From assembly GCA_964370115.1 (NCBI GenBank), contig CAYJIA010000002.1:9361-73360 (forward strand): 64,000 nucleotides of DNA, given 5' to 3'. Origin of the DNA: an uncultured Eubacteriales bacterium (GTDB lineage: Bacteria; Bacillota; Clostridia; Oscillospirales; Acutalibacteraceae). This document shows positions 5,757 through 62,625 of this stretch, piece by piece (the first letter of the stretch is position 1; the number at the start of each line of letters is the position of its first letter). The translations under genes were made by a program, and so were the position numbers. The notes beneath the pieces are model-generated. The model saw nothing but the letters and a program-made list of their open reading frames with translations. It did no database searches and was not told the DNA's origin.

Positions 5757-5929
5757 CTAAATATCAAATTTTCCTAAATATGTTTTTCTTTTTTTTGGTA
5801 ATAAAATTTCATCTGTGCTTACTTTATAAATCCTTGATAATGTAATAATCGTTTGTATACTTGGTTCTGAGTCATACCATTTTTTTCTCTTAGGCGTTTT
5901 AATCTGTGACCTATATTTGATTTTTCCAT
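5757..5929 (-). pseudogene. XRE-family HTH gene with its helix-turn-helix core deleted (paralogue of 10462..10701)
   Basis: ATG at 5929 reads MEKSNIGHRLKRLREKNGMTQ, then hits a stop after 15 more codons. A shifted frame continues EPSIQTIITLSRIYKVSTDEILLPKKRKTYLGKFDI*, which matches the C-terminus of the intact 79-aa paralogue (EPSLTSIVLLSKIYNVTTDEILLPKKRKIYLGKFDF*). About 22 codons (AEIASFLGITRSAYTYYETGKT) are missing and the frame is shifted. Confidence 0.7.
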
Positions 5930-5951
5930 TTTATTCACCTCAGGTATATTA

Positions 5952-5993
5952 TATGCGATTTACGCATATAATGCAATATGCAATTAACGCATA
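5952..5993. promoter_or_regulatory. two 17-bp operator-like palindromes between the divergent XRE genes
   Basis: TATGCGATTTACGCATA (5952-5968, perfect 6-bp arms) and TATGCAATTAACGCATA (5977-5993, one arm mismatch). Centres are 25 bp apart, in the 91-bp divergent intergenic region. Confidence 0.5.
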
Positions 5994-6020
5994 CTATATA
6001 ATTTCTTAGAGGTGATATAG

Positions 6021-6248
6021 ATGTATTCTCGTATAAGAAATTTAAGAGAAGATAAAGATTTAAAGCAAGTTCAAATGGCAGATTTTTTGTGCGTTTCTCA
6101 AACTACATATTCAAGATACGAAAGTGGTGTCTTAGATATCCCCACAGAAGTATTAAAGCAGTTAGCATTGTTTCATTGTGTTAGTGTTGATTATTTAATA
6201 GAAATGACAGATGTGAAAAAACCATATCCTAAAATTAATAAAAAATAG
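6021..6248 (+). CDS. XRE-family HTH transcriptional regulator (75 aa)
   Basis: Cro/CI-type HTH (QVQMADFLCVSQTTYSRYESG). Same length as 10800..11027 and about 40 percent identical by eye, including the shared C-terminal TD.KKPY. Confidence 0.85.
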   Translation: MYSRIRNLREDKDLKQVQMADFLCVSQTTYSRYESGVLDIPTEVLKQLALFHCVSVDYLIEMTDVKKPYPKINKK

Positions 6249-6260
6249 AATTATAATCAT

Positions 6261-6289: not shown

Positions 6290-6418
6290 TTCTTAAAAAA
6301 TAAAGGGCGCCGAAACGACGCCCTTACAATGTTAATTTGAAATTTGTGGAAAATATAATCATACCACGCCGACGGCGTGAACCATAATTATTCCTTATTC
6401 ATTATTAATTATCAATTA
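6290..6418 (-). repeat. intergenic composite repeat (AT arm + CACGCC hairpin + GC hairpin)
   Basis: Read from the pgm stop on the minus strand: a stop-rich arm (taattgataattaataatgaataaggaataatt), ATGG, then hairpin TTCACGCC-GTC-GGCGTGG (6364-6383). Next come the ttccacaaatttc motif and hairpin GGGCGTCG-TTT-CGGCGCCC (6305-6323) with a 5' GTAA. The same modules recur elsewhere in the window. Confidence 0.75.
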
Positions 6419-8095
6419 CTAAAACACTTCCGCAGCTTTTAGCTTCTCTATAATCTCTAGGCTTTCTTCTTTTGTTTTGCCTTTTGCAGATAGATAGGCT
6501 TTTATTTTTGGCTCTGTTCCTGATGGACGAACTATGTATTTTGATCCATTATCAAGTCTAAGCTCTATAACATTTGATTTAGGAAGTTTAATCTCTTCTT
6601 TAGTGTCGCCGTCGGTTTTCACAGAAAGTAGGTAGTCGCTTGTGCCTACTACTTTATATCCTGCTATGCTTTTTGGCGCTTCATTTCTAAGAGTGGACAT
6701 GATGTCAGACATTTTGTTCATTCCGTCTTCACCCTCAAATGTGAAAGTCATCAAGTCATTTTTATAGTATCCATATTTTTCATAAAGCTCTGTCATAACA
6801 TCGACTAGAGTTTTGCCGTTTTGTTTATGATATGACGCCATTTCGCAAATTAGCATAGATGCATTAACAGCATCTTTATCTCTTACATAAGTTCCTGATA
6901 GATAGCCATAGCTCTCTTCAAATCCAAGTACATATGCGCCCTCTTCCCCGTCTTTTTCAAGATCTGCAATTATGTCACCTATATATTTGAATCCTGTTAA
7001 AACTCTGTAGAATTCTATGTCATGCTCTTTTGCGATTGGGTCTACCATGTCTGTTGAAACTACTGTAGTAACCGCAACACGGCGTTTACCTACATTTTTA
7101 TTTTTTGCTATAAAGTCTAAAAGCATAATTCCGACTTCATTTCCTGACATCAAAACATACTCTCCACCTTGATTTACCGCGATACCCACACGGTCGCAGT
7201 CTGGATCTGTGGCAAGAAGAAGGTCAGGTTTTACTTTTTGACAAAGGTCTAAACCTTTTTGTAGTGCTTCTTTAATTTCTGGATTTGGATAAGGGCAGGT
7301 TGGGAAGTTTCCGTCTGGCTCTGATTGCTCTTTTACAAGTTCAATGTCTTTTACGCCTATTCTATCTAAAATAGAAAGAACACAGCGTTTACCACTACCG
7401 TTTAGAGGAGTGTATACAAGTTTTAGGTTTTCGCAAGAATTTGTAAGAACTCTTTGTCCGTTTACTGCATCTATAAATGCTGTCACTGTCTCTTCTGTTA
7501 TGTACTCAACCATGCCGTCTTGTAGTGCTTTTTCAAAGTCTACTTTCTTAACATCGTTAAAAATATCGGTGACTTTGATTTCTGCCATAATAGCATCTGC
7601 CATTTCTTCTGTTGCTTGGCAACCGTCGCTACCATATACTTTGTATCCGCTGTATTTTGCAGGGTTATGGCTTGCTGTTACACAGATACCCGCGTCTGTT
7701 TTTAAGTGCCTTACCGCAAATGAAAGCGCAGGAGTTGGCATAAGTTCGCTGTATAGGTAAACTTTAATTCCATTAGCAACTAAAACTCTCGCTGCTTCTT
7801 TAGAAAATAACTCACCTTTAATTCTGCTGTCGTATGCTATTGAGACGCTAGGCACATTGTCACCTTTTGTATTGTTTAGATAAGTTGCAAGACCTTGAGT
7901 AGCTTTTGCGATTGTATAAACATTAATTCTGTTTGTTCCGGCGCCTATAACACCTCTAATTCCACCTGTTCCAAAATCGAGGTCACGATAAAATCTATCG
8001 TTAATTTCCTCTTCATTGTCTTTTACTGAAACTAGCTCTTCTGTTAAATCTTTGTCCTCTAAATCGACACTAAGCCATCTTTTGTATTCGCTCAT
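6419..8095 (-). CDS. phosphoglucomutase / phosphomannomutase family protein
   Basis: Phosphoserine loop TASHNPAKYSGYKVY and Mg loop ATDPDCDRVG. Start moved from 8113 to ATG 8095, which follows GAGGGAG at good spacing. Confidence 0.9.
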   Translation of the reverse strand: MSEYKRWLSVDLEDKDLTEELVSVKDNEEEINDRFYRDLDFGTGGIRGVIGAGTNRINVYTIAKATQGLATYLNNTKGDNVPSVSIAYDSRIKGELFSKEAARVLVANGIKVYLYSELMPTPALSFAVRHLKTDAGICVTASHNPAKYSGYKVYGSDGCQATEEMADAIMAEIKVTDIFNDVKKVDFEKALQDGMVEYITEETVTAFIDAVNGQRVLTNSCENLKLVYTPLNGSGKRCVLSILDRIGVKDIELVKEQSEPDGNFPTCPYPNPEIKEALQKGLDLCQKVKPDLLLATDPDCDRVGIAVNQGGEYVLMSGNEVGIMLLDFIAKNKNVGKRRVAVTTVVSTDMVDPIAKEHDIEFYRVLTGFKYIGDIIADLEKDGEEGAYVLGFEESYGYLSGTYVRDKDAVNASMLICEMASYHKQNGKTLVDVMTELYEKYGYYKNDLMTFTFEGEDGMNKMSDIMSTLRNEAPKSIAGYKVVGTSDYLLSVKTDGDTKEEIKLPKSNVIELRLDNGSKYIVRPSGTEPKIKAYLSAKGKTKEESLEIIEKLKAAEVF

Positions 8096-8190
8096 TTTAA
8101 TACTCCCTCTCAAATTAATTTTGCCGCTTGTTAATAATTATACTATATTAAAAATACCAAAAAAAGTAAGTTATGTCAAACCATTTACTG

Positions 8191-8640: not shown

Positions 8641-8688
8641 TTTTACCTCTTTTCATACAATGCACACGCACTGCATAATATATAATAT

Positions 8689-8798
8689 GACTAATGGCTA
8701 AAGGTGAATGACTAATGACTATTTTTATATAGTATTTAGCCTATATTGAGTCTTTCACCATTAATCATTAGTCTTTAGTCGCAAGTGCTAGCACTTGC
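8689..8798. repeat. AT-word inverted arms plus 18-bp perfect palindrome
   Basis: The left arm gactaatggctaaaggtgaatgactaatgac and the right arm gagtctttcaccattaatcattagtctttagtc are built from the same words in opposite orientation (GACTAA, ACTAATGA, GGTGAA). The same words occur at 19023-19055. They are followed by GCAAGTGCTAGCACTTGC (8781-8798). Confidence 0.5.
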
Positions 8799-9884: not shown

Positions 9885-10205
9885 GTGGCTGAAAACTTTG
9901 ATTCTATGAGACGTGATGCAATACTGAGGGCAAGGGAGATTTACTCGAGGGCAAAACTTCCACATAACGAGTTTAGAACCGATCCGAGAGATGTAAACAT
10001 AGAAGCACCAGTTTCAAACGAAGTAGACGACAGTTCTATAACAAATTTTCTAAGTAGCATAACTTCAACAGGTTCGAGCAGTACATTAAATAATACATAT
10101 TTACAAGACGAAGAGTTAAAACTTATTTTATTTATAATAATTATTCTATGCCAAGAGAATGTAGACAGCGCGCTAATTTTTGCTCTTTTATACTTAATAA
10201 GCTGA
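9885..10205 (+). CDS. small hypothetical protein with C-terminal hydrophobic helix
   Basis: GTG start behind AGGAGG. 106 aa ending in LKLILFIIIILCQENVDSALIFALLYLIS. Confidence 0.65.
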   Translation: MAENFDSMRRDAILRAREIYSRAKLPHNEFRTDPRDVNIEAPVSNEVDDSSITNFLSSITSTGSSSTLNNTYLQDEELKLILFIIIILCQENVDSALIFALLYLIS

Positions 10206-10461
10206 AATGGTAATTGAAAATTGATAATTTAAAATTGATAATTGTGGTGAAAATCCTGCGGATTTTTTTGATTGTATTTTCTTTAATTTTGAATTAGTGG
10301 TGTAGGGGCGGTCATTGGTGCCCGTTTTGTAGACAGTAAACCTAGCGGACGACCAATGGTCGTCCCTACTTTATTTATCACAGATAATTAGTAGGCAGAA
10401 AACTTTGTGTTACGTGTAGGGGCTATCCTATGTGATAGCCCGAAAAGATTTCCACAAAAAT
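10206..10461. repeat. intergenic repeat cluster: AT arm, GTGG hairpin and three GTAG-flanked GC hairpins
   Basis: GTGG-TGAAAATCC-tgc-GGATTTTTTT (10244-10269). GTAGGGGCGGTCATTGGTGCCCG (10302-10324, decayed). GGACGACCAATGGTCGTCC-CTAC (10347-10369, minus orientation). GTAG-GGGCTATC-ctatgt-GATAGCCC followed by gaaaagatttccacaaaaatt (10416-10461). Confidence 0.8.
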
Positions 10462-10701
10462 TCAGAAATCAAACTTTCCTAAATAGATTTTCCTTTTTTT
10501 AGGTAATAAAATCTCGTCTGTAGTGACATTATATATTTTTGATAATAGTACAATACTTGTAAGGCTTGGTTCTGTTTTACCTGTTTCGTAATATGTATAT
10601 GCCGATCGTGTAATGCCTAAGAAAGATGCAATCTCTGCCTGTGTCATACCACTTTTTTCTCTTAATTTTTTTAATCGTTTTGGAAGTTGCGTTTCAAACA
10701 T
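10462..10701 (-). CDS. XRE-family HTH transcriptional regulator (79 aa)
   Basis: HTH MTQAEIASFLGITRSAYTYYETG. Intact paralogue of pseudogene 5757..5929. Confidence 0.85.
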   Translation of the reverse strand: MFETQLPKRLKKLREKSGMTQAEIASFLGITRSAYTYYETGKTEPSLTSIVLLSKIYNVTTDEILLPKKRKIYLGKFDF

Positions 10702-10744
10702 AATACTACCTTTTTAAATCAATAACAGTCCTACTGTTTATATT

Positions 10745-10779
10745 ATAGGTCAATTTAACCATATTTTCAATAGGTCAAT
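10745..10779. promoter_or_regulatory. direct repeats ATAGGTCAAT x2 in the divergent XRE intergenic region
   Basis: ATAGGTCAAT at 10745-10754 and 10770-10779, 25 bp apart, between 10462..10701 (-) and 10800..11027 (+). Confidence 0.4.
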
Positions 10780-10799
10780 CTGCCATAATAATTAATGAG

Positions 10800-11027
10800 G
10801 TGTTGTTAAATATGGATAGATTAAGAAATTTGCGCAAGGAAAAGGGTTTTACACAAATAAAAATGCAAATCCTTACAGGCATAGACCAAAGTGATTATTC
10901 CAAAATTGAAAATGGAAAAAGACATTATACTTTTGAACAGTGCAGAAAAATTGCCATTGCCCTTGACACGAGCATGGATTATTTGGCAGGTTTAACCGAC
11001 GAGAAAAAACCGTATACTAGAAGCTAA
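10800..11027 (+). CDS. XRE-family HTH transcriptional regulator (75 aa)
   Basis: HTH FTQIKMQILTGIDQSDYSKIENG and a C-terminal TDEKKPY shared with 6021..6248. Confidence 0.85.
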   Translation: MLLNMDRLRNLRKEKGFTQIKMQILTGIDQSDYSKIENGKRHYTFEQCRKIAIALDTSMDYLAGLTDEKKPYTRS

Positions 11028-11074
11028 GGTGGTATAAAAGATTTCAACAAAATTAAAATACACATATAATCCAA

Positions 11075-11143
11075 AAATCGGGTGGAAAATTTCCACCCGA
11101 TTTCACATCAATTATTAATTATTAACTATTAACTATTAATTAC
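11075..11143 (-). terminator. intrinsic terminator of maa preceded by a stop-rich AT arm
   Basis: On the minus strand the maa stop is followed by gtaattaatagttaatagttaataattaataattgatgtg. Then comes a 13-bp stem AAATCGGGTGGAA-att-TTCCACCCGATTT and TTTT. The architecture matches the composite repeats. Confidence 0.75.
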
Positions 11144-11779
11144 TTAAATAACTTTATTATCCGCAAGTATCTCTGGTTTATAAATCATGCTGTCTTTTTC
11201 TGTAATCTCGCGAATTACTCGACAAGGGTTTCCTGCCGCGAATGAATTCGCTGGTATGTCTTTTACTACCACACTTCCAGCGCCTATGACGCAGTTTTCA
11301 CCGATAGTCACACCAGGACAAATAACAACATTTGCACCAAGCCAACAGTCTTTTCCTACGGTCACAGGTTTTGCATAGCATAGATGCTTTGGATTTCCGT
11401 CTTTGTCTAGCATTGTTTTTCTCTCACTTGCTATCATTGGGTGAACAGGAGTCACAATAGTAACATTTGGTCCGAAATTGCAGTCGTCACCAATAGTAAC
11501 TTTTGCATCGTCTTGCACAGTGAAATTAAAATTGATAAAACAGCCTTTTCCTATAGTCGTATGTTTGCCATAGTGGAAAGTAATAGGCCCTTGTAAAAAA
11601 CTGCCCTCGCCTAAAAAGCCAAGTATCTCGCTTAAAATTTCCGCCCTTTCCTCCACTTGATTTTCATATAAGCGGTTGAAATCTTTGTTTAAGTTATGCG
11701 TTTTAAGCTTAATTGCTTTTAAATCTGGGTCTGCTGGACTAAAAAGTATGCCTTGCTCAATTTTCTGTTCTTCCCTCAT
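11144..11779 (-). CDS. maa: maltose/galactoside O-acetyltransferase (hexapeptide-repeat family)
   Basis: 211 aa with a Mac-type N-terminus and left-handed beta-helix repeats (IGDDCNFGPNVTI, VGKDCWLGANVVICPGVTIGENCVIGAGSVV). Confidence 0.8.
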   Translation of the reverse strand: MREEQKIEQGILFSPADPDLKAIKLKTHNLNKDFNRLYENQVEERAEILSEILGFLGEGSFLQGPITFHYGKHTTIGKGCFINFNFTVQDDAKVTIGDDCNFGPNVTIVTPVHPMIASERKTMLDKDGNPKHLCYAKPVTVGKDCWLGANVVICPGVTIGENCVIGAGSVVVKDIPANSFAAGNPCRVIREITEKDSMIYKPEILADNKVI

Positions 11780-17975: not shown

Positions 17976-18145
17976 AAAATTCTCCGTTTCGATTAATACT
18001 ACTATTTTACAACTTTTTAAGGATATTTTCAAGTGGATAAGGCAAGTCGGAAATAAAAAAATTCATGCCGACATAATTAAACATTTTTTTCGCAATTACT
18101 ATGATATTATCTCATTAAAGAAATTCATTAAAAGGAGCGGAAAAA

Positions 18146-19022: not shown

Positions 19023-19125
19023 GGACTAATGACTAAAGGTGAAAGGTGAAAGACTTAAGGTTCACGCCAACGGCGTGTTATAAATATAAAAAATGCTTTG
19101 CATTTTTCACTACAATTATTAATTA
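19023..19125 (-). repeat. composite AT-armed repeat (minus orientation)
   Basis: The reverse complement reads taattaataattGTAGTGAAAAATGCaaaGCATTTTTTatatttataaCACGCCgttGGCGTGAACCttaag plus an arm gtctttcacctttcacctttagtcattagtcc. Its core is near-identical to the copy at 36598..36720. Confidence 0.8.
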
Positions 19126-23156: not shown

Positions 23157-23867
23157 ATGATAGCTAAAATAAATTCACTGCAAAGTCTAGGCGCAAGCGA
23201 CGGCCCCGGCATAAGATACGTAGTTTTTATGCAGGGCTGTAACCTGCGTTGTGGCTGTTGCCATAACCCCGAAACTTGGGATATGACGGGCGGAACCGAC
23301 ATGACAAGTGACCAAGTTTTTGAAAAAATATTAAGATACAAACCGTACTTTGGAGAGCACGGCGGCATTACAGTATCTGGTGGAGAAGCTTTGTTGCAGG
23401 CAAAATTTGTGGCAGAGCTTTTTACTCTTGCCAAAAAGTCGAAGAAAAATAAAATTCACACCTGCCTTGACACAGCGGGACATATAATGAATTCAAACGT
23501 AACAGAACTGCTAAATGTAACAGACCATGTATTGCTAGATATTAAGTACTGCACCGAAGAGGACTACCAAAAGTACGTGCGCTGTTCGCTTAAAAAGGTC
23601 TTAGAATTTTTAGAAATACTAGGCGAAAAAAACATAAAAACAACGCTGAGAACAGTAATAATCCCAACAAAAAACGACAATGAAAAAATGATAGAGTTTT
23701 TAAACATGCTAAAACAAAAGCATAAAAACGTGGATAAAATAGAACTTTTACCGTTCAGTAACGTCTGTATAACAAAATATGAGAATATGGATACTCAGTT
23801 TCCATTTAAAGATATCCCAGTCCCGACAAAGGAAAAAATGGAGGAGCTGAGGAGACTAGTTAATTAA
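23157..23867 (+). CDS. pflA: pyruvate formate-lyase activating enzyme (radical SAM)
   Basis: CNLRCGCCHNPETW cluster motif and GGITVSGGEAL. Confidence 0.93.
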   Translation: MIAKINSLQSLGASDGPGIRYVVFMQGCNLRCGCCHNPETWDMTGGTDMTSDQVFEKILRYKPYFGEHGGITVSGGEALLQAKFVAELFTLAKKSKKNKIHTCLDTAGHIMNSNVTELLNVTDHVLLDIKYCTEEDYQKYVRCSLKKVLEFLEILGEKNIKTTLRTVIIPTKNDNEKMIEFLNMLKQKHKNVDKIELLPFSNVCITKYENMDTQFPFKDIPVPTKEKMEELRRLVN

Positions 23868-23990
23868 TAATTAATAATGAATAATTAATAATTGTGGAAC
23901 ACGCCTCTGGCGTGTTTTTAATTATAAAATCCGAAGGATTTTCGCAACAATTCTCCATTCTCCATTCTCCATTATTAATTCTCAATTCCA
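23862..23990. repeat. composite AT-armed repeat, module order rearranged
   Basis: Starts at the pflA stop: ttaattaataattaataatgaataattaataatt-GTGG-AACACGCC-tct-GGCGTGTT. Then AAAATCC-gaa-GGATTTTCGCAAC in the opposite orientation, and a right arm aattctccattctccattctccattattaattctcaatt. Confidence 0.75.
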
Positions 23991-24002
23991 AACTTTCAAC
24001 TA

Positions 24003-24033
24003 AAAAAAATCGACCCGAAGGTCGATTTTTTTT
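24003..24033. terminator. bidirectional intrinsic terminator (htrA / pflA side)
   Basis: AAAAAAAATCGACC-cgaa-GGTCGATTTTTTTT, with A and T tracts on both sides. Confidence 0.8.
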
Positions 24034-25596: not shown

Positions 25597-25745
25597 GAAT
25601 TTAAATTGTGGTAAATTTCGGGCGAATGATATCCGCCCCTACAACGGAAAACATTAAATTATACTGTAGGGGCGAACCTGTGTGTTCGCCAGTAGGGTTT
25701 CCGCAAATCCAAGGCAAGAGCAGAGCCCTTGCCCTACGATTTAAA
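25597..25745. repeat. REP-like hairpin cluster (types D, A, B)
   Basis: GGGCGAAT-gat-ATCCGCCC-CTAC (25621-25643, minus orientation). GTAG-GGGCGAAC-ctgtgt-GTTCGCC (25667-25691). GGCAAGAGC-aga-GCCCTTGCC-CTAC (25714-25738, minus orientation). All carry the same linker motifs as the array at 26300..26852. Confidence 0.85.
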
Positions 25746-25772
25746 ATGTAGTTTATATGAACTCGGCTAGAG

Positions 25773-26138
25773 TTAGCGCAGTATATATCGCCTGCTTTTT
25801 GCCATATTCGCTATCATCATATTTATGGGAATTACAAATAAATTAATCGCAAGTAAGCTGAAAAAAATATTTTGAGGATACCATGCTACGCCTGTTTGTG
25901 AACCTATATTTAGAAATTGAAATATATTCATAGGACCTAAATCATTATAAGAATGAAGTTCAATCCACGGGAAAATCAGTCCAAATTTATAAAAATAGGC
26001 AATAAATGTGTTATCGGCACCACCAGAAAATAAATATGGAGTTGCTCCGACAGTATGAATGAAGGAAAATAAAAATAGGAATAAAGAAGTTCCAATATTT
26101 GTAGCTTTGTTAAGTCCGTATTTTTTGAACAGTTTCAT
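25773..26138 (-). CDS. small hydrophobic hypothetical protein embedded between repeat clusters
   Basis: 121 aa with several hydrophobic segments and no recognisable motif. Flanked on both sides by the same A+B hairpin pair in direct orientation. Confidence 0.5.
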   Translation of the reverse strand: MKLFKKYGLNKATNIGTSLFLFLFSFIHTVGATPYLFSGGADNTFIAYFYKFGLIFPWIELHSYNDLGPMNIFQFLNIGSQTGVAWYPQNIFFSLLAINLFVIPINMMIANMAKSRRYILR

Positions 26139-26299
26139 AAGTCCACCTCAAAGTTCTATCCAATTAAAAAAATGAATGATAAATAGTGCACATTATTATC
26201 ACCTACTAATTAAAGCCTTTATATATCTATTATATAATAAGCTGCAACAAATATATATTTATATTAGCAATATAATAATATGAAAAAAATCTTATTTTA

Positions 26300-26852
26300 G
26301 GTGTAGGGGCGACCATTGTTCGCCAGTAGGGTTTCCGCAAATCCAAGGCAAGAGCAGAGCCCTTGCCCTACGGTTAGAAATTGAAATTTGTGAAAAATAA
26401 AAGGGTGCCGAAACGACACCCTTGCAGCGGAAATTTAAATTGTGGTATATTTCGGGCGGATGATATCCGCCCCTACAACGGAAAACATTAAATTTAGGTG
26501 TGGGGTTTCCGCAAATCCAAGGCAAGAGCAGAGCCCTTGCCCTACGATTTTAAATGAAAATTTGTGAAAAATAAAAGGGTGCCGAAACGACACCCCTACG
26601 GTTTTAATTTAAATTGTGGTAAATTTCGGGCAGATGATATCCGCCCCTACAACGGAAAACATTAAATTTAAGTGTAGGGGCGAACCTGTGTGTTCGCCAG
26701 TGGGGTTTTCGCAAAACCCAAGGCAAGAGCAGAGCCCTTGCCCTACGGTTAGAAATTGAAATTTGTGAAAAATAAAAGGGTGCCGAAACGACACCCTTGC
26801 AGCGGAAATTTAAATTGTGGTATATTTCGGGCGGATGATATCCGCCCCTACG
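26300..26852. repeat. tandem array (3 units, 174 and 201 bp spacing) of four GTAG-flanked GC-rich hairpin types
   Basis: Type A: GTAGGGGCGA..TTCGCC at 26303 and 26673 (missing in unit 2). Type B: GGCAAGAGCAGAGCCCTTGCC-CTAC at 26347, 26521, 26722. Type C: GGGTGCCGAAACGACACCC at 26403, 26577, 26778. Type D: GGGCGGATGATATCCGCCC-CTAC at 26454, 26628, 26829. Linkers are conserved: gtttccgcaaatccaa, aaattgaaatttgtgaaaaataaaa, aaatttaaattgtggtatatttc, aacggaaaacattaaattta. Confidence 0.9.
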
Positions 26853-26935
26853 ATTTTAAATTAAAAAATCCAAAGGATTTTCACAACAATTCTACATTCT
26901 CAATTCTACATTCTCCATTATTAATTCTCAATTAT
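26853..26935 (-). repeat. AT-armed repeat abutting the ECF-S gene stop
   Basis: The minus strand reads gat aat TGA (gene end), then gaattaataatggagaatgtagaattgagaatgtagaatt-GTTG-TGAAAATCC-ttt-GGATTTTTT. Confidence 0.75.
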
Positions 26936-27491
26936 CCAAAAGCCCGCTTTTGGATAAAGCCAATTTCACCGTCATACATAGTGGAACTGCTATTATTATT
27001 GCTATTACTGCGTTAATGCTTGATGTGCCCAGTCTTGTTATCATTGACGGGATAAGTGCCTCGGGGACACTTCCCTCTAATAGCCCCGACACATAGCTTT
27101 TTGAAAGATATAAGATTATATAGGCAATTTGCCCCATTGCACAAAAGCTTATTCTGGTAACTAAAAGTTTTACACCTGTGGATTTTGACTTTGCTATAAA
27201 TCCAGGCAGCATTGCGAGTATGAATTTAAACACAAAGGTAAACGGCGCCGAGGTGATGTACACAGGGTTTGTAAGGTCGTATAGTGCCGAGCCTATGCCT
27301 GCCGAAAGTCCACCGCCCACAGGGCCTAAAATCAGTCCAGACAATAGGCAAAATACATTGCCTAAATGTATACGGCTGACGTCTCCTATTGCGATTGGTA
27401 TAGGTATGCTGATAAAGTTTGAAACAAATACCAGTGCGCCAAACACGCCGATAAGCGCAGTTCTATGTATTTTCTTTTTCTCCAAGTTCAT
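26928..27491 (-). CDS. ECF-transporter substrate-specific (S) component
   Basis: 187 aa, about 6 TM, Gly-rich helix pattern typical of ECF S components (GNVFCLLSGLILGPVGGGLSAGIGSALYDL). Substrate not assignable. Confidence 0.7.
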   Translation of the reverse strand: MNLEKKKIHRTALIGVFGALVFVSNFISIPIPIAIGDVSRIHLGNVFCLLSGLILGPVGGGLSAGIGSALYDLTNPVYITSAPFTFVFKFILAMLPGFIAKSKSTGVKLLVTRISFCAMGQIAYIILYLSKSYVSGLLEGSVPEALIPSMITRLGTSSINAVIAIIIAVPLCMTVKLALSKSGLLDN

Positions 27492-28859: not shown

Positions 28860-29720
28860 ATGAAAAATAAAGGGGTAATGAATATGACACAAGCGGTAAA
28901 TCGCGACGGTAAGCGATTTAAAGATGCGTCACAAGGCGTGGCGTTTTTCACATCAAACAAACTAAAAGTAATTGCGGTTTTAACAATGGTGGCGGACCAC
29001 TTTGTAGATGGAATTTTTCCTCCTGACTTAAGCATGGGACCTCCGGCTTGGTGGTGGATGGCGGTTAAATGCCTAGGAAGACTTTCAATTGCGCTGATGT
29101 GCTTTTTTATAGCAGAGGGTTTTCACTACACCTCTAACAAATGGAAGTATCTTTCAAGAATGGCAATTTTTGCGATAATTTCACACGCACCTTATAACCT
29201 ACTTTTTAGTAGGGTAGACGCACCGATTTTGTCAGTATTAAACCCACTAAACGGGACAAGCGTTATCTGGGCACTCACAATGGGACTTTTAGCGCTCATG
29301 ATAGTAAAAAGTGAAGCTATAAAAAATAATGTTTTAGGCATACTTTTAAAAGTAATAGGAGTTGGAGTTTGCTGCGCCCTAGCATATACAGCAAACTGGA
29401 ACTATATAGCAGTACTTTGGATAGTAGGATTTGGAATTTTTAGAGGAAATGTAAAACTACAAACTTTATCATTTATCATAATAGGTACAGGAATTTACGT
29501 CGCACCTATGCTACTTGATTTTTACCAAGGTGACATAAGTTACCTAAAATGGTTCTTCTTTGGAATATACGCCGCAATACCTTTCTACTTCTTATACAGT
29601 GGCAAAAGAGGAAAAAAATCAAAAGCAGTAACTTGGTCGTTCTATATCGTATATCCAGGGCATCTACTGCTGTTCTACGCGATAAAAGCACTGGACTTTT
29701 ATGGGATAATAAATATTTGA
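28860..29720 (+). CDS. TraX-family membrane protein
   Basis: Polytopic membrane protein with the TraX-type N-terminus KVIAVLTMVADHF. The likely start is ATG 28884 behind AAGGGG. Confidence 0.7.
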   Translation: MKNKGVMNMTQAVNRDGKRFKDASQGVAFFTSNKLKVIAVLTMVADHFVDGIFPPDLSMGPPAWWWMAVKCLGRLSIALMCFFIAEGFHYTSNKWKYLSRMAIFAIISHAPYNLLFSRVDAPILSVLNPLNGTSVIWALTMGLLALMIVKSEAIKNNVLGILLKVIGVGVCCALAYTANWNYIAVLWIVGFGIFRGNVKLQTLSFIIIGTGIYVAPMLLDFYQGDISYLKWFFFGIYAAIPFYFLYSGKRGKKSKAVTWSFYIVYPGHLLLFYAIKALDFYGIINI

Positions 29721-29841
29721 GTAATTTATAATTGAGAATGTAGAATGAATAATTGTGGTGAAAATCCTTCGGATTTTTTTATTTAAAACACGCTGTAGGC
29801 GTGAACCTTAATTCTCAATTCTACATTCTCAATTCTCAATT
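29721..29841 (+). repeat. composite AT-armed repeat, best-preserved copy (perfect 17-bp terminal inverted repeat)
   Basis: AATTGAGAATGTAGAAT (29730-29746) is the exact reverse complement of ATTCTACATTCTCAATT (29818-29834). Between them lie GTGG-TGAAAATCC-ttc-GGATTTTTTT (29755-29780) and CACGC-tgtag-GCGTGAACC (29789-29807). Confidence 0.85.
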
Positions 29842-29872
29842 AAAAAAGAGGAGGGCATCGCCCTCCTCTTTT
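29842..29872. terminator. bidirectional intrinsic terminator
   Basis: AAAAAAGAGGAGGGC-atc-GCCCTCCTCTTTT. Confidence 0.8.
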
Positions 29873-30379: not shown

Positions 30380-30384
30380 TACAA

Positions 30385-30459
30385 GGCCCGTTGGTCAAGC
30401 GGTTAAGACACCGCCCTTTCACGGCGGTAACACGAGTTCGATTCTCGTACGGGTCACCA
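30385..30459 (+). tRNA. tRNA-Glu (UUC)
   Basis: 75 nt, GGCCCGTTGGTCAAGCGGTTAAGACACCGCCCTTTCACGGCGG...GTTCGATTCTCGTACGGGTCACCA. Anticodon TTC, encoded CCA. Confidence 0.92.
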
Positions 30460-31168: not shown

Positions 31169-31199
31169 AAAAAAATCCACCCTTGGGTGGATTTTTTTT
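31167..31199. terminator. bidirectional intrinsic terminator
   Basis: AAAAAAAAATCCACCC-tt-GGGTGGATTTTTTTT. Confidence 0.8.
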
Positions 31200-31200
31200 G

Positions 31201-31318
31201 AAGTAATAAGTAAAAGTTAATAAGTGTAGTTCACGCCTACGGCGTGTTTTAATCGAAAAAATCCGAAGGATTTTCACCATAATTATTAATTATTAATTAT
31301 TCATTATTAATTAATTCT
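31201..31318 (-). repeat. composite AT-armed repeat (minus orientation) supplying the DUF1015 gene stop
   Basis: The minus strand reads ctt gag aat TAA (gene end), then ttaataatgaataattaataattaataatt-ATGG-TGAAAATCC-ttc-GGATTTTTTC-gattaaaa-CACGCC-gta-GGCGTGAAC-tacacttattaacttttacttattac. Confidence 0.8.
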
Positions 31319-36230: not shown

Positions 36231-36600
36231 GAGGAAACTTTTTTCAAAAAGAGATTTAATTATAGTGCTAATACTTTTGGGATTTAGCCTTGTTTTATAC
36301 CTTGCATTAAACAGCTCAGAGCAAGGAATGACCTTTACCGTGAAATCACCACAAAATGAAGATTACCATATAAATTTTGACAAGGCACAGGAAGAAAAAA
36401 CGCTGACGATAGACGGCGATTATCCCCTTGAAGTGCATTATAGTGAGGGCGCAGTATGGATAGAAAACGCCACCTGTCCCGACAAAGTATGTGAGCACTC
36501 GGGCAAAATAAGCAAACAAGGACAAAGCATAATATGCATACCAGCAGGAGTGTCGGTCGAAATAGACGGAGAAGACGAGTTTGACGGGAGGACGTATTGA
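36223..36600 (+). CDS. NusG domain II-containing membrane protein
   Basis: 125 aa. TM anchor plus CPDKVCEHSGKISKQGQSIICIPAGVSVEI, the usual signature of this family next to ApbE and Gx transporter genes. Confidence 0.75.
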   Translation: MDKRKLFSKRDLIIVLILLGFSLVLYLALNSSEQGMTFTVKSPQNEDYHINFDKAQEEKTLTIDGDYPLEVHYSEGAVWIENATCPDKVCEHSGKISKQGQSIICIPAGVSVEIDGEDEFDGRTY

Positions 36601-36720
36601 TAATTAATAATTAATAATGAATAATGAATAATTGTAGTGAAAATGCAAAGCATTTTTTAAAATTAATATCACGCCAATGGCGTGAACCTTACTTATTAAC
36701 TATTAATTATTAATTAATAA
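36598..36720 (+). repeat. composite AT-armed repeat starting at the stop codon of the preceding gene
   Basis: TGA-taattaataattaataatgaataatgaataatt-GTAG-TGAAAATGC-aaa-GCATTTTTT-aaaattaatat-CACGCC-aat-GGCGTGAACC-ttacttattaactattaattattaattaataag. Confidence 0.85.
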
Positions 36721-41461: not shown

Positions 41462-42247
41462 ATGAACGATATATTAGTAGCGGTTATAATAGTTGTGGCG
41501 ATAGGCCTTGTTGCAGGCATAGGACTTGCAATAGCTTCTATAGTCATGGCTGTGCCGAAAAATGAAAAAGCCGAGGCGCTAAACGAGGCACTGCCAGGTG
41601 CCAACTGTGGTGCCTGTGGATACTCAGGCTGTGCAGGCTATGCCCTAGCACTTGCAAACGGTGAGGCGACCCTTGGGCTATGTTCACCCGGCGGTCAAGA
41701 ATGTGTAGATGCCTGTGGTGAGATTTTGGGAATATCTGTCAGTATGGAACTTAAAACCGCCGTGGTGCACTGCGCCGGCGACTATGAAGTGACGACAGAC
41801 AAAATGAACTATGACGGCATAGAAAGCTGTGCGGCGGCATCACTTCTTGCAGGTGGTATATCGAGCTGTCGTTTTGGCTGCATGGGCATGGGCGACTGTC
41901 AAAGAGTATGTCAATATGACGCGGTTGTAATCGAAAACGGTCTTGCAAAAATTGACCCAGCAAAATGCAAATCATGCGCAATGTGTGTGACAGCATGTCC
42001 GAAAAATCTTATTTCTATAATTCCGATAAAAGAGCAAGCCTTTGTAAAATGTAGTAACTGCGACAAGGGTGCAGGCGTTATGAAAATTTGCAAAATAGGC
42101 TGCATAGGATGCATGAAATGCGTAAAAGTCTGCGAGGAAAAAGCAGTGAGCGTGACAAGCTTTATGGCAAGAATTGACCACGACAAATGCACAGGATGTG
42201 GAAAATGCGTAGAGGCATGTCCGAGGAATATAATTGAGATACTTTGA
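41462..42247 (+). CDS. rnfB: Rnf complex subunit B (polyferredoxin)
   Basis: 261 aa with an N-terminal anchor, CGACGYSGC and several CxxCxxCxxxCP clusters. Confidence 0.92.
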   Translation: MNDILVAVIIVVAIGLVAGIGLAIASIVMAVPKNEKAEALNEALPGANCGACGYSGCAGYALALANGEATLGLCSPGGQECVDACGEILGISVSMELKTAVVHCAGDYEVTTDKMNYDGIESCAAASLLAGGISSCRFGCMGMGDCQRVCQYDAVVIENGLAKIDPAKCKSCAMCVTACPKNLISIIPIKEQAFVKCSNCDKGAGVMKICKIGCIGCMKCVKVCEEKAVSVTSFMARIDHDKCTGCGKCVEACPRNIIEIL

Positions 42248-42470
42248 TTAATTAATAGTTAATAATTATTAATTAATAGTTGTGGTGAAATGCTACGCAT
42301 TTTTGATTTTATATTGTAGGGCAAGGGCTATGCTCTTGCCTTAGTTTTTGCAGTAAATTTTAATTTTCCGTTGTAGGGGCGACGTTTCGTCGTCCGAAAT
42401 CCACCACAAATCAAAATGATAATTGTAGAGGCGGTCATCGGCCGCCCGAAGTTTACAACAAAACTACTAT
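42248..42470 (+). repeat. intergenic repeat cluster: AT arm, GTGG hairpin and three GTAG-flanked GC hairpins
   Basis: Arm ttaattaatagttaataattattaattaatagtt. GTGG-TGAAATGC-tac-GCATTTTT (42282-42305). GTAG-GGCAAGGGC-tat-GCTCTTGCC (42316-42340). GTAG-GGGCGACG-ttt-CGTCGTCC-gaaatccaccacaaat (42373-42410). GTAG-AGGCGGTC-atc-GGCCGCCC-gaagtttacaac (42425-42459). Confidence 0.85.
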
Positions 42471-43322: not shown

Positions 43323-43787
43323 CTACAAATATTCAAAAGCTATATTGACATTTATTGGCAGAGTTTGTTTTGCCACTTGCTCAAATTCTTCTTGGCTTAG
43401 GTTATTAAGACTTTGTACTCTTAGGGTGCAAAGATTGTTTTCACCCTCCACTAACTCTCCGACAAAGCCTATATCCGAAAGTTTTTGTAGCACAGTGGTT
43501 TTAGAAAACGGATTTTCGTAAAGCCTAACTTTTGCCAAAATCTTGTTTTTTCTGTCCTCTATAGTGCCAAGAGCCGTGCTACCCGTGATTTTTTCGAATT
43601 TTTTCAGCGTTTGCTCATCACAGCTTTTTATAAAAAAGTTATCAATCGTTTGTTCTATATAGCTGTTAATCAACTCAAATCCTTTGGCCCATGCGCTGAG
43701 TTTTGCCTCTATAAGTGGTGTGCTGGGACTTAGGATTTTTATTTCTTCAAGTACTTTTACCATGTTTAAGTAATTTAAGTTCTCCAT
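43323..43787 (-). CDS. baseplate/tail protein, XkdU / Mu gp48 / P2 gpI-like (DUF2313)
   Basis: 154 aa directly after the baseplate J-like gene. The N-terminal LNYLNMVKVLEEIKILSPS...AKLSAWAK pattern and the gene position fit DUF2313. Confidence 0.5.
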   Translation of the reverse strand: MENLNYLNMVKVLEEIKILSPSTPLIEAKLSAWAKGFELINSYIEQTIDNFFIKSCDEQTLKKFEKITGSTALGTIEDRKNKILAKVRLYENPFSKTTVLQKLSDIGFVGELVEGENNLCTLRVQSLNNLSQEEFEQVAKQTLPINVNIAFEYL

Positions 43788-59324: not shown

Positions 59325-60659
59325 TTGAAGACGACAGGAAGACGATCTATAGTCTTATATGTGCTATTATTAGCGTTTATAGGAGGTGTGGCGTATTTGG
59401 TTTTTAATATGTTTACACAGGGCGGAAAGTGGATAGCACAGCCGTATAACGGTCATATTTATGCCGAGAGCTCAACTGTGCAAATTGGAGATATACTAGA
59501 CACTAACGGTGTGCTTTTGGCAACAACCGAAGACGGCGTTAGAACCTATAGCGACAACAGCGACATAAGACATTCGCTTTTGCACACAATAGGAGACAGC
59601 AATGGATATATAGGAACAAGCGTTCAAAACAATATGCTAGAGCACTTGATGGGATACAACCCAATTTTTGGATTAAACGACTTGCCTTTTGGGCAAAATG
59701 ATTTGAAACTCAGCATAGATGCAAATATAAACTCCATAGCGTATGAGGGACTAAACGGAAAAAACGGCGCTGTGCTTATGTACAACTACAAAACAGGCGA
59801 AATTATAGCAAAGGTGAGCGCGCCGACATTTGACCCGTCAAACCAACCTGAAGATTTGCTTACAAATGAAGACTACGACGGTGTACTGCTAGACAACACT
59901 GTGTCGTCGAGTTATACTCCAGGTTCTGTGTTCAAGACTGTCACCTCGGCGGCGCTTATGGAAAATGTACCAAACTGGGAGGACACCACTTATTATTGTG
60001 GAGGACACTTAGACGTGGGAGTCGACAGGATAACCTGCCTTGGAACCCACGGTGACATAGACGTATACGAGGCGTATGGCAGGTCATGTAACATCTTCTT
60101 TGCAAAAGCGGCTATGGACATGGGTGCCGATACCTTAGAGCAGGTGTCAGAGGATTTAGGGTTTAACCAAAATTTAGACTTAGGTGAGTTTACGACGGTA
60201 AAAAGCGTCATAGACCTAGAGGACGTGGCAGAGGTAAACCTCGGTTGGTCAAGCGTAGGACAGTACACAAACACTGCAAACCCCATGCATATGCTAATGC
60301 TCGTTGGAGCTATTGCAAATGGCGGAGAATACGTGCACCCGACAGTGCTAGAGGGTTCAAACGCAGGACAAAAAACAAGGCTTATGAGCACCGAACTTTC
60401 AAACGAGTTATCAGGTCTTATGAGAAATGCAGTAGAAAACTACTACTATGACTCAAGGTTTCCAAGTGGCATGCAAATTGCCGCAAAAACAGGCACAGCA
60501 GAAGTAGGAGAAGGCAAAGAGCCAAACGCATGGTTTATGGGCTTTTCCCAAAACCCCGAAACCCCTTATGCCTTTGTGGTAGTAGTAGAAGAAGGCGGAG
60601 GCGGCATAGACATAGCGCTAGACATAGCGGTGGATATGCTTTCTTTAATTGAGAATTAA
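59325..60659 (+). CDS. class B penicillin-binding protein (transpeptidase)
   Basis: 444 aa with an N-terminal anchor and motifs SVFK (SxxK), SCN (SxN) and KTGT. The last four codons and the stop (TTA ATT GAG AAT TAA) lie in the adjoining repeat arm. Confidence 0.88.
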   Translation: MKTTGRRSIVLYVLLLAFIGGVAYLVFNMFTQGGKWIAQPYNGHIYAESSTVQIGDILDTNGVLLATTEDGVRTYSDNSDIRHSLLHTIGDSNGYIGTSVQNNMLEHLMGYNPIFGLNDLPFGQNDLKLSIDANINSIAYEGLNGKNGAVLMYNYKTGEIIAKVSAPTFDPSNQPEDLLTNEDYDGVLLDNTVSSSYTPGSVFKTVTSAALMENVPNWEDTTYYCGGHLDVGVDRITCLGTHGDIDVYEAYGRSCNIFFAKAAMDMGADTLEQVSEDLGFNQNLDLGEFTTVKSVIDLEDVAEVNLGWSSVGQYTNTANPMHMLMLVGAIANGGEYVHPTVLEGSNAGQKTRLMSTELSNELSGLMRNAVENYYYDSRFPSGMQIAAKTGTAEVGEGKEPNAWFMGFSQNPETPYAFVVVVEEGGGGIDIALDIAVDMLSLIEN

Positions 60660-60783
60660 TAATTGAGAATTAATAATTGAGAATTGAGAATTGTGGCGAA
60701 AATCCTTTGGATTTTTTATTTTAAAGAAAATGCTTTGCATTTTTCGCCACAATTCTGCACTCTGCATTCTCCATTCTCAATTA
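60647..60783. repeat. palindromic double copy of the AT-armed repeat
   Basis: Arms of (aattgagaattaat)n, with GAATTGTGGCGAAAA (60688-60702) the exact reverse complement of TTTTCGCCACAATTC (60741-60755). Inside are hairpins GAAAATCC-ttt-GGATTTT and GAAAATGC-ttt-GCATTTTT in opposite orientations. Confidence 0.85.
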
Positions 60784-62439: not shown

Positions 62440-62625
62440 ACTTCGATTTGCAGAAAACCCAAAGGCAAGAGCAGAGCCCTTGCCCTACAGTTACGCCTTA
62501 TATTTTGTGTAACCCTCACGAGCGGTCATTGACCGCCCGAAATCCACCAGTGATTTTAAATTAACACGTAGGGGCGACGTTTCGTCGTCCAAAAATTTCC
62601 ACAAAATCCCACTAAAATATTAAAA
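62440..62625. repeat. REP-like hairpin cluster
   Basis: GGCAAGAGC-aga-GCCCTTGCC-CTAC (62464-62488, minus orientation). GAGCGGTCA-tt-GACCGCCC-gaaatccaccag (62520-62550). GTAG-GGGCGACG-ttt-CGTCGTCC-aaaaatttccacaaaat (62568-62607); this hairpin is identical to the one at 42373-42395. Confidence 0.85.

Follow-up and report, generated by a model that had tools for sequence, protein, structure and literature searches.

Repetitive extragenic palindromic (REP) elements are abundant non-coding repeats of bacteria that are known mainly from Proteobacteria, with E. coli and Pseudomonas the best-studied cases, and both their spread and their function are debated. By the published rule, a REP carries a GT[AG]G tag 0-2 nt before a stem of 7-20 bp with a loop of 2-5 nt (PMC6006769). 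A GC-rich basal stem is a criterion for canonical REPs (Quentin et al. 2018), and REP dimers are arranged head-to-head (PMC3733652). The E. coli enzyme TnpA-REP binds GTAG REPs and cuts nearby single-stranded DNA between C and T with low specificity, and its strand transfer can build tandem copies (PMC3333891). Intergenic arrays of heptamers have been described without a tagged hairpin, namely TAACTGA in Beggiatoaceae, Cyanobacteria and Bacteroidetes (PMC4679880), and GGGAATC in Xanthomonas and GGGGA(C/T)T in Nostoc (PMC4692102). Here we analysed a 64,000-nt stretch of DNA from an uncultured Eubacteriales bacterium (contig CAYJIA010000002.1, referred to as the window), and in particular a palindromic element at positions 29721-29841 that combines tagged hairpins with heptamer arrays.

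On balance, we read this locus as one copy of a lineage-specific, non-autonomous mosaic repeat of the REP, bacterial interspersed mosaic element (BIME) or REPIN kind, which would be moved by a trans-acting enzyme of the REP-associated tyrosine transposase (RAYT) type. REP/BIME/REPIN elements are the closest kind by tag geometry, stem covariation, intergenic copies that lie mostly after genes, doublets with outward tags, mosaic clusters and nested insertions, and the repeat coexists in this genome with canonical GC-rich GTAG REPs. Unlike in canonical REPs, the stems of its first hairpin class (H1) are AT-rich and followed by T runs, the tags are degenerate, and heptamer arrays are almost always present on the tag side. 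We know of no description of such tag-side arrays for proteobacterial REPs.

Anatomy of the element and its hairpin modules

The building block of the repeat would be a small hairpin whose stem is preceded, at a distance of one base, by a GT[AG]G-like tag, with an in-phase heptamer array on the tag side. Two such blocks face to face, with tags and arrays outward, would give the long imperfect palindrome found here, which has the following features.

29718-29720, plus strand: TGA stop codon of the upstream TraX-family gene (28860-29720; ORF list, Pfam TraX); the element begins 3 nt downstream
29723-29757, plus strand: left heptamer array of five in-phase units, AATTTAT AATTGAG AATGTAG AATGAAT AATTGTG
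29755-29780, plus strand: hairpin H1, with tag GTGG, T, stem GAAAATCC, loop TTC, stem GGATTTT(T) and a T run
29781-29788, unstranded: AT spacer ATTTAAAA of 8 nt between H1 and H2
29789-29809, minus strand: hairpin H2, read on this strand as tag AAGG, T, TCACGCC, loop, stem AGCGTG and TTTT
29810-29841, minus strand: right heptamer array, AATTCTC AATTCTA CATTCTC AATTCTC AATT, in opposite orientation to the left one
29844-29872, unstranded: separate canonical bidirectional terminator with a perfect 13-bp GC-rich stem (-22.2 kcal/mol), directly adjoining the element and outside the repeat family

The left array has stop codons in all three frames, and its final unit includes the first 3 bases of the tag. 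The spacer extends the T run of H1 on the top strand and provides the T run of H2 on the bottom strand. On the top strand, H2 reads CACGCT-GTA-GGCGTG followed by AACCTT, with one G-T pair in the stem CACGCT/GGCGTG. The perfect 17-bp inverted repeat reported by a first-pass annotation is present, with AATTGAGAATGTAGAAT at 29730-29746 fully complementary to 29818-29834, and over the wider arms of 38 nt (29722-29759 and 29805-29842) complementarity is 82%. The whole element folds at -38.4 kcal/mol (z = -6.3).

Both hairpin classes follow one layout. H1 has a stem of 8 pairs (7 Watson-Crick pairs and a G-T pair), a loop of 3-4 nt and its tag 1 nt before the stem. When the four bases ending one position before the stem were collected from 51 H1 units, GTGG was found 22 times and GTAG 4 times, and the remaining tags were mostly one-base variants (ATGG 6, GAGG 5, GCGG 3, GTTG 2). 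H2, read on its own strand as xxGG-T-TCACGCC-NNN-GGCGTG and then a T run, has a 6-pair stem, a loop of 3 nt and the tags AAGG, GTAG, GTGG, ATGG or GCGG. Sequence classes number at least three, as a further one, H3 (GTAG-TGAACGCAT-TNT-ATGCGTTCA), occurs in relatives. Together with its tag and 3' flank (TTTTGATTATA), H1 forms a sequence of 22-26 nt that recurs at dozens of unrelated loci in three genomes.

The stems are conserved as structures. The proposed compensatory change in H1 (TCC/GGA versus TGC/GCA) was borne out among 28 distinct units, which carry C:G 13 times, G:C 12 times and A:U once at this pair. In the H1 alignment 95.8% of stem cells are paired, and in the alignment of doublets 98.2%, with one compensatory pair per hairpin, compared with 31-70% in slid controls. 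The covariation is limited and amounts to two or three subfamilies.

Searching the window with an H1 pattern (GTGAAAATCC-TTC-GGATTTTTT, at most three mismatches) gave 6 matches where 0.00 were expected, and an H2 pattern (CACGC-N4-GGCGTGAACC) gave 6 where 0.04 were expected. A covariance model and a regular-expression catalogue together list 10 H1 units (E<1e-5), one strong-stem variant (11067-11111) and 6 H2 units, the model having been trained on these same window copies, all of which are in its training set. About ten copies had been annotated in the first pass; we find H1/H2 modules at 11 intergenic sites, and each of the copy loci listed before holds at least one. All window modules are intergenic or overlap solely the last codons of genes. 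Apart from the element at 29721-29841, the relevant loci are as follows.

6344-6418, minus strand: decayed H1 and intact H2 (6365-6379); the array adjoins the phosphoglucomutase stop codon (gene 6419-8113)
8687-8780, unstranded: two heptamer arrays (ATGACTA/AAGGTGA type) in inverted orientation, the sequence between them lacking H1 and H2
10206-10273, plus strand: array and single H1 directly after the stop of ORF 9885-10205, GC-rich GTAG hairpins next
11067-11147, minus strand: follows the stop of gene 11144-11779; array and an H1-like unit whose stem is long and GC-rich (AAATCGGGTGG/CCACCCGATTT, -20.6 kcal/mol)
19023-19115, minus strand: located between parB-like and parA genes; doublet of H1 (GTAG, TGC type) and H2, the H2 side bearing an AAGGTGA-type array
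23861-23990, minus strand: full doublet and both arrays, flanked by convergent genes; the stop of 23157-23867 is overlapped by one of the arrays
about 23995-24031: canonical terminator adjoining the doublet at 23861-23990
26858-26938, minus strand: array and single H1; the array provides the stop of the ECF-S gene (26928-27491)
31201-31316, minus strand: full doublet and both arrays between convergent genes; a canonical terminator (31169-31199) adjoins
36596-36720, plus strand: full doublet (GTAG tag, TGC stem) that takes up the 129-nt spacer separating the NusG_II gene from the heptaprenyl-diphosphate-synthase gene
42247-42310, plus strand: array and single H1 (GAAATGC type) directly after rnfB, three GC-rich GTAG REPs next
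60646-60782, plus strand: H1/inverted-H1 doublet (GTGGCGAAAAT...ATTTTTCGCCAC) and both arrays; the left array provides the stop of the PBP gene

Seven window loci join a hairpin to an inverted partner; at 6344-6418 the H1 partner has decayed. The element at 60646-60782 as a whole folds at -41.7 kcal/mol (z = -6.25). The modules are combined in several ways, both in the window and in loci fetched from related metagenome-assembled genomes (MAGs; for instance L048 and L096). In the doublets the tags point outward. H1 is paired with H2 at 29753, 31281, 36632, 19115 and 23949, in L002 and twice in L096, and with an inverted H1 at 60691-60752 and in L048. H1 is followed in direct order by a GC-rich GTAG REP at 10242, 26889 and 42280 and at many MAG loci, the order H3-array-H1 is found in L001, L026, L048 and L096, and arrays also occur alone. 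The cores had been called nearly identical, which overstates their likeness: mean column identity over 8 doublets is 81%, loops and spacer vary freely and the stems are what is conserved. Three of the supposed copies (10206-10273, 26858-26938 and 42247-42310) have only one H1, and what comes next in each is GC-rich GTAG hairpins and not H2.

The first-pass annotation had called the element MITE-like. A classical MITE, a miniature transposable element with inverted repeats, would be a deletion derivative of an insertion sequence (IS), moved whole by a DDE transposase and flanked by a target-site duplication. The size of about 120 nt, the long inverted arms, the good overall fold and the many intergenic copies would agree with this. 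Moreover, some variants are linked across both hairpins: the copies at 29753 and 31281 have both loops in common, and the copy at 36632 agrees with that at 19115 in tag, stem and H1 loop. This linkage suggests that the doublet was copied as a unit. Nevertheless, we consider a classical MITE very improbable. The repeat has no constant termini, its modules occur separately and in other combinations, and arm length and heptamer type change from copy to copy and even from one side of a copy to the other. No flanking direct repeats were evident at the 11 window loci, where the arrays would obscure short ones, and no transposase or longer parent element with matching ends was found among the Pfam-scanned window ORFs or the fetched loci. 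The repeat resembles Correia/NEMIS, ERIC, RUP and BOX elements in being about 100-150 nt long, non-coding and dispersed, with inverted ends, BOX-like modularity and a place at gene borders, but differs from them in that it shows no fixed terminal inverted repeats, target-site duplication or cognate IS, and in that its arms are tandem arrays.

Heptamer arrays on the tag side

The arms of the element had been described as stop-rich, degenerate words of 6-7 nt. The degenerate, stop-rich heptamers are there; the arms are, however, arrays of variable length built from several heptamer variants and not fixed terminal inverted repeats. Among the tandem arrays that Tandem Repeats Finder reports for the window, a period of seven is the most frequent (15 of 43), compared with 42 of 303 arrays in 561 kb of unrelated loci. 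Fifteen of 17 period-7 arrays of the window abut a tagged hairpin, the others being the inverted pair at 8687-8780 and a weak intragenic match. Across loci and genomes the units follow the consensus A[AG]T[GT][AG]A[GAT], with AATTGAG, AATTAAT, AATGTAG and AATGGAG in the window and AGTGAAG, AGTTGAT and AGTTAAT in the MAGs. Because the last unit (A[AG]TTGTG) takes in the tag's first three bases, array and tag share one phase. By a strict criterion, at least two in-phase heptamers lie upstream of 37 of the 51 H1 units, and single H1 units have no array on their 3' side. Promoter-like matches within the arrays were taken as a by-product of AT-rich periodic sequence and not as evidence.

The same tag-side position was seen, at a lower frequency, in another repeat of the window. 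This GC-rich REP (REP-A, 25-mer GTAGGGCAAGGGCTCTGCTCTTGCC) is identical in one related MAG (co2_14) and occurs in at least 120 metagenome stretches (L097-L216) on contigs of 33-62% GC. When the 45 nt on either side of 135 REP-A copies from unrelated metagenome contigs were compared, period-7 arrays turned up on the tag side 8 times and on the other side never, and the control periods 5, 6, 8 and 9 gave 0-1; the sample is small and the pattern was noticed before it was counted. The heptamers next to REP-A are mutually unrelated (TAGAAAT, GTTTAAT, GTATATT, GGCCAGA, CTAGCCT, AATTCGG), and contigs with such arrays include L099, L107, L127, L148, L154, L168, L178, L179, L185 and L197. A further observation concerns L144, L154, L177 and L179, in which inverted GCTAGAG-type arrays surround a core of about 55 nt with TTGTGGAAAAGC...GGCGTGTTCC that faintly resembles the H1/H2 core.

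A tentative and still doubtful idea is that the heptamer arrays are a by-product of REP processing, arising as in-phase 7-nt duplications on the tag side only, through a tag-bound RAYT that recuts and rejoins single-stranded DNA there or through replication stalling. Among described systems, the published heptamer arrays are similar in their variable copy number, in forming some inverted pairs and in having three-frame stops on the forward strand, which limit overlap with coding ends. They differ from the arrays of the window in that those of Beggiatoaceae lie mostly upstream of start codons, whereas ours lie after stops. A similar architecture has reportedly been described in Nostoc punctiforme and relatives by Elhai and colleagues in 2008, where small dispersed repeats (SDR) are said to consist of hairpins of 21-27 nt that are often set in tandem heptamers, with compensatory mutations and nested insertions. 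These SDR differ in phylum (Cyanobacteria versus Clostridia), and their sequences are probably unrelated to ours. Our literature searches for descriptions of heptamers combined with hairpins returned nothing relevant.

It could also be proposed that the arrays are a binding platform, on which a host nucleoid protein or an RNA-binding regulator reads sites with 7-nt periodicity while the hairpins act as positioning signals. The periodicity and the unit consensus do hold across loci and genomes, and binding of a post-transcriptional regulator has been proposed for the TAACTGA arrays of Beggiatoaceae (PMC4679880). However, the heptamer sequence varies between genomes and between the arms of one copy, no candidate protein was identified, and our arrays sit mostly at the 3' ends of genes, unlike the Beggiatoaceae arrays before start codons. 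We regard such a platform as improbable.

Gene ends, turnover and the search for an enzyme

The bias towards the 3' ends of genes that the first-pass annotation had predicted is found. Counted over the window together with the MAG loci, 33 modules turn their tag side towards the 3' end of a co-oriented gene no more than 250 nt away and 7 turn it towards a gene start, with a median distance of 58 nt from tag to stop. These counts are not all independent, because 10 of the units come from one tandem gene family (L067). Ten of the 11 window loci begin 0-10 nt after a stop codon or overlap one. Arrays of at least 28 nt usually have stops in two or three frames of the tag strand, and the opposite strand of the G-containing heptamer families has few or none. 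In the L067 contig itself (CAYJJU010000002.1, 600-7400), five tandem paralogous gene cassettes follow each other at a spacing of about 1.5 kb, each preceded by an array, a GTGG-CGAAATGC hairpin, an AATTAAT array and then H1.

Such a position is also what would be expected of a gene-end cassette under selection, in which the array stops translation in three frames and the inward hairpins act as a bidirectional terminator or stabilise 3' ends. The orientation counts and the closeness to stop codons speak for this, as do the stops in most long arrays on the incoming strand. In addition, a T run comes after each hairpin on the strand of that hairpin, H2 is accepted by a simple terminator scan, no other terminator-like hairpin serves the genes at 36601 and 60660, and the REPs of E. 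coli are reported to work as terminators and stabilisers depending on context (bioRxiv 10.64898/2026.03.23.713779). The earlier suggestion of a dedicated terminator is weak: T runs and co-orientation agree with it, but stem strength does not. H1 folds at -5.4 kcal/mol and H2 at -7.4 kcal/mol as RNA, compared with -20 to -22 kcal/mol for nearby canonical terminators, and H1 is rejected by the terminator scan under its rule of three GC pairs. Like intrinsic terminators, then, the modules combine a hairpin with a T run in the direction of the gene, and a doublet resembles two convergent terminators, but the stems of H1 and H2 are far weaker and the modules are often redundant with canonical terminators or downstream of them. 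Canonical terminators adjoin the elements at 29721 (29844), 23861 (23995) and 31201 (31169), and the element at 29721 sits between a stop codon and a strong terminator. Copies in the MAGs often lie directly after the T run of a terminator and before a promoter-like site (L002, L006, L045, L085, L090), and the copy at 36596-36720 fills a spacer whose two flanking genes, co-oriented and located upstream of rnf, may share a transcript. Since copies sit in mixed contexts with and without terminators, a tolerated or mildly useful passenger fits better than an obligatory terminator. We consider the selected cassette rather unlikely.

The flanking genes of the window form an anaerobic Firmicute set (Rnf complex, pyruvate formate-lyase and its activase, malic enzyme, HtrA, NusG_II), and further regions are of Firmicute style (mnmE-mnmG-rsmG, noc-parA-parB). 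This gene content excludes a cyanobacterial origin, and matches fall in Eubacteriales MAGs. H1 is repeated, with an array, TTGTGG-T and the hairpin, in the uncultured Eubacteriales bacteria ERP123703_co2_14, co1_308 and co2_141. A scan of species-representative genomes was done with H1 without its tag prefix, and most of its 95 stretches are chance matches or unrelated terminators, the informative ones being those of the three ERP123703 MAGs; one related MAG has more than 14 H1 stretches among the matches listed. With the TTGTRG prefix, H1 had no exact match in JGI metagenome contigs or in viral contigs, and it was missing as well from 471 kb of metagenome contigs that carry REP-A; the family therefore looks lineage-specific. 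In addition, a plasmid search for H1 returned only chance matches in Parabacteroides, and no Rfam family matched at the gathering score, the permissive matches being generic hairpins far below threshold.

Syntenic loci allowed the turnover of the modules to be followed. L048 is 75% identical to the window over 5 kb, and L096 is syntenic over 20 kb, with proteins 70-97% identical to those of the window. The NusG_II/heptaprenyl-diphosphate-synthase spacer holds H1/H2 in the window and H3, an array and H1/inverted H1 in L048; L096 has the arrangement of L048 with a shorter right array and, between the H1 units, a nested insert of about 150-190 nt made of two inverted GC-rich REPs. Downstream of rnfB, the window has an array, H1 and three GC-rich REPs, and L096 has a GC-rich REP, an array and H2/H1. 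The ECF-S protein ends in SGLLDN in the window and in SGLLKKPQNLSQEKTT in L096; the window protein is 10 residues shorter, and its stop codon falls in the first heptamers of an array. The spacer between the ECF-S and HtrA genes measures 1455 nt in the window, where it holds H1, a REP cluster and a 121-aa ORF, versus 125 nt in L096. In two MAGs that are about 90% identical, an H3-array-H1 block is identical at the orthologous site and the GC-rich REP family downstream of it is swapped.

Two loci of MAGs about 90% identical to each other (L006, 1-1000, and L045, 5640-7440) carry different cassettes, of about 0.75 and 1.55 kb, between inverted H1 units. The DNA upstream of H1 differs between them, and the upstream arrays are of different heptamer types. 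The comparison suggests recombination or cassette exchange at H1 repeats.

These comparisons also bear on a non-mobile origin, by which heptamer microsatellites would have grown by replication slippage in AT-rich spacers beside local hairpins that converged on terminator-like sequence. In many bacteria heptamers are, of all long simple repeats, the most over-represented, and slippage has been proposed for them (PMC4679880; PMC4692102), and array length does vary between the orthologous NusG_II/heptaprenyl-diphosphate-synthase spacers (26 versus 12 nt). Convergence, however, leaves unexplained why dozens of loci share the H1 sequence, its loops, tags and spacers; the arrays occur on the tag side only and in phase, and the nested insertion and the truncated gene end likewise argue against this origin, to which we assign little probability.

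The kinship with GC-rich GTAG hairpins that had been suspected is supported by the tag geometry, as H1 and H2 carry their GT[AG]G-type tag in the same place. The window has 41 hairpins with a GT[AG]G tag, compared with 11.5 in shuffled sequences, and about 20 of them are GC-rich GTAG hairpins of several families. These hairpins form dense clusters at 25600-26860, 10300-10440, 42316-42450 and 62460-62600, with at least five sequence families. One unit of 174 nt is repeated about twice in tandem (26329-26680) and looks like a BIME, and clusters flank the ORF of 121 aa (25773-26138), a putative membrane protein that is absent from the syntenic spacer of L096.

RAYT-like ORFs were found in 11 of the REP-A loci (for example L104 4461-5111, L146 112-579 and L200 321-896). 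They match Pfam Y1_Tnp above its cut-off, and their best NCBIfam match is the REP-associated tyrosine transposase, below the equivalog cut-off of that model. They have 3045 homologues, some of them named RayT or transposase (Oscillospiraceae, Eubacteriales, Ruthenibacterium). In the RAYT-like ORFs examined, the coding sequence itself includes REP-A in both orientations, read as VGQGLCSC and, inverted, as RQEQSPCPT; judged from these reading frames, the predicted transposase gene carries its own REP doublet within its coding sequence. Because REP-A lies in RAYT-like Y1_Tnp ORFs, the GC-rich hairpins of the window are very likely true REPs. The sibling MAGs GCA_964370775.1, GCA_964371675.1 and GCA_964368625.1 also have RAYT-like genes with REP-A, and H1 and H2 were absent from the contigs examined of these three MAGs.

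From the observed anatomy, tag-side rule, turnover and positional bias we infer the enzyme, a mechanism of movement and a possible effect on RNA. A transposase acting in trans, HUH/Y1 in class and RAYT in type, would recognise the hairpins in single-stranded form, as would hold for the GC-rich GTAG REPs of this genome. The arrays would arise and change in length where this enzyme cleaves loosely and transfers strands close to the tag, or where the polymerase slips at a stalled hairpin. With stops in all frames of the strand that meets the incoming gene, the arrays would make an insertion tolerable even in the last codons of a gene, and copies would accumulate after stop codons for this reason. 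Termination or protection of 3' ends by the weak hairpins and their T runs would be a side effect that depends on context.

Several points weigh against a RAYT-mobilised REP-like repeat. Only 26 of the 51 H1 units have an exact GT[AG]G tag, that is, half of the tags deviate. The basal pairs of H1 are a G-T and four A-T pairs, which breaks the rule of a GC-rich basal stem for canonical REPs, a rule that H2 and the GC-rich GTAG hairpins of the window satisfy. Searches of the window and of 146 kb of loci from related MAGs, a small part of each of these genomes, brought up no Y1 or RAYT gene; the only matches were translated fragments of REP-A, with IS200 and RAYT sequences and then RAYT-like proteins from the metagenome loci as queries. 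The orientation bias is equally expected from a selected function at the RNA level. The H3-array-H1 block that is identical in two MAGs means that arrays do not always change fast, and no clean pair of filled and empty sites for an H1/H2 doublet was found in the syntenic comparisons. The evidence as a whole still leans towards the REP-like repeat.

Neighbouring features and meaning of the repeat

Some other features of the window and of the fetched loci were recorded. Paralogous cassettes of small helix-turn-helix genes (75-79 aa, XRE-like by eye) adjoin REP or H1 modules at 5760-6250 and 10462-11027; the genes are divergent at the latter site, and one partner looks decayed at the former. At about 18033-18145, mnmE-mnmG-rsmG (minus strand) and noc-like/parA/parB genes (plus strand) diverge, and the cumulative GC skew has its minimum near 18 kb, which could mark an origin-proximal replication switch or a simple change of gene strand. 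The orientation of H1 tracks the local gene strand and not the side of this point. ORF 43323-43787, with a weak Pfam match below cut-off to phage Mu Gp48, edges a long block of minus-strand genes (43.3-52.7 kb).

The H1 pattern also caught an unrelated motif, AAAAATCCGTAG..TTTCATCT.. then GTGAAAATCCTACGGATTTTTT, then CATTT.ATGTGCTTTTTCTATCGCCG, in rumen and gut Clostridia MAGs (L013, L025, L032, L054, L056, L059, L063, L064, L069, L075, L084, L091, L092). It looks like an alternative terminator/antiterminator pairing or another repeat family. The start of L092 has a tRNA-like match to window positions 30383-30439.

What is new here is an AT-rich, terminator-looking form of REP-like repeat in an uncultured Clostridia lineage, and an association of REP-like hairpins with period-7 arrays that are on the tag side only and in phase, seen less often at REP-A in gut and digester contigs. 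The tag-side rule is the most promising lead. It offers a concrete biochemical hypothesis for the origin of heptamer arrays. If that hypothesis is true, it would link REP elements to the over-represented heptameric simple repeats of Nostoc, Xanthomonas and Beggiatoaceae, both of them features of intergenic DNA that have long lacked an explanation, and the repeat would be a self-contained unit that is able to land in the last codons of genes, with the arrays supplying the stops. The repeats will confuse the calling of gene ends, the prediction of terminators and assembly in these genomes. Gene ends can be reshaped by such elements, as the truncated ECF-S protein and the 1.3-kb expansion of a spacer illustrate, and the elements lie at junctions where cassettes may have been exchanged.

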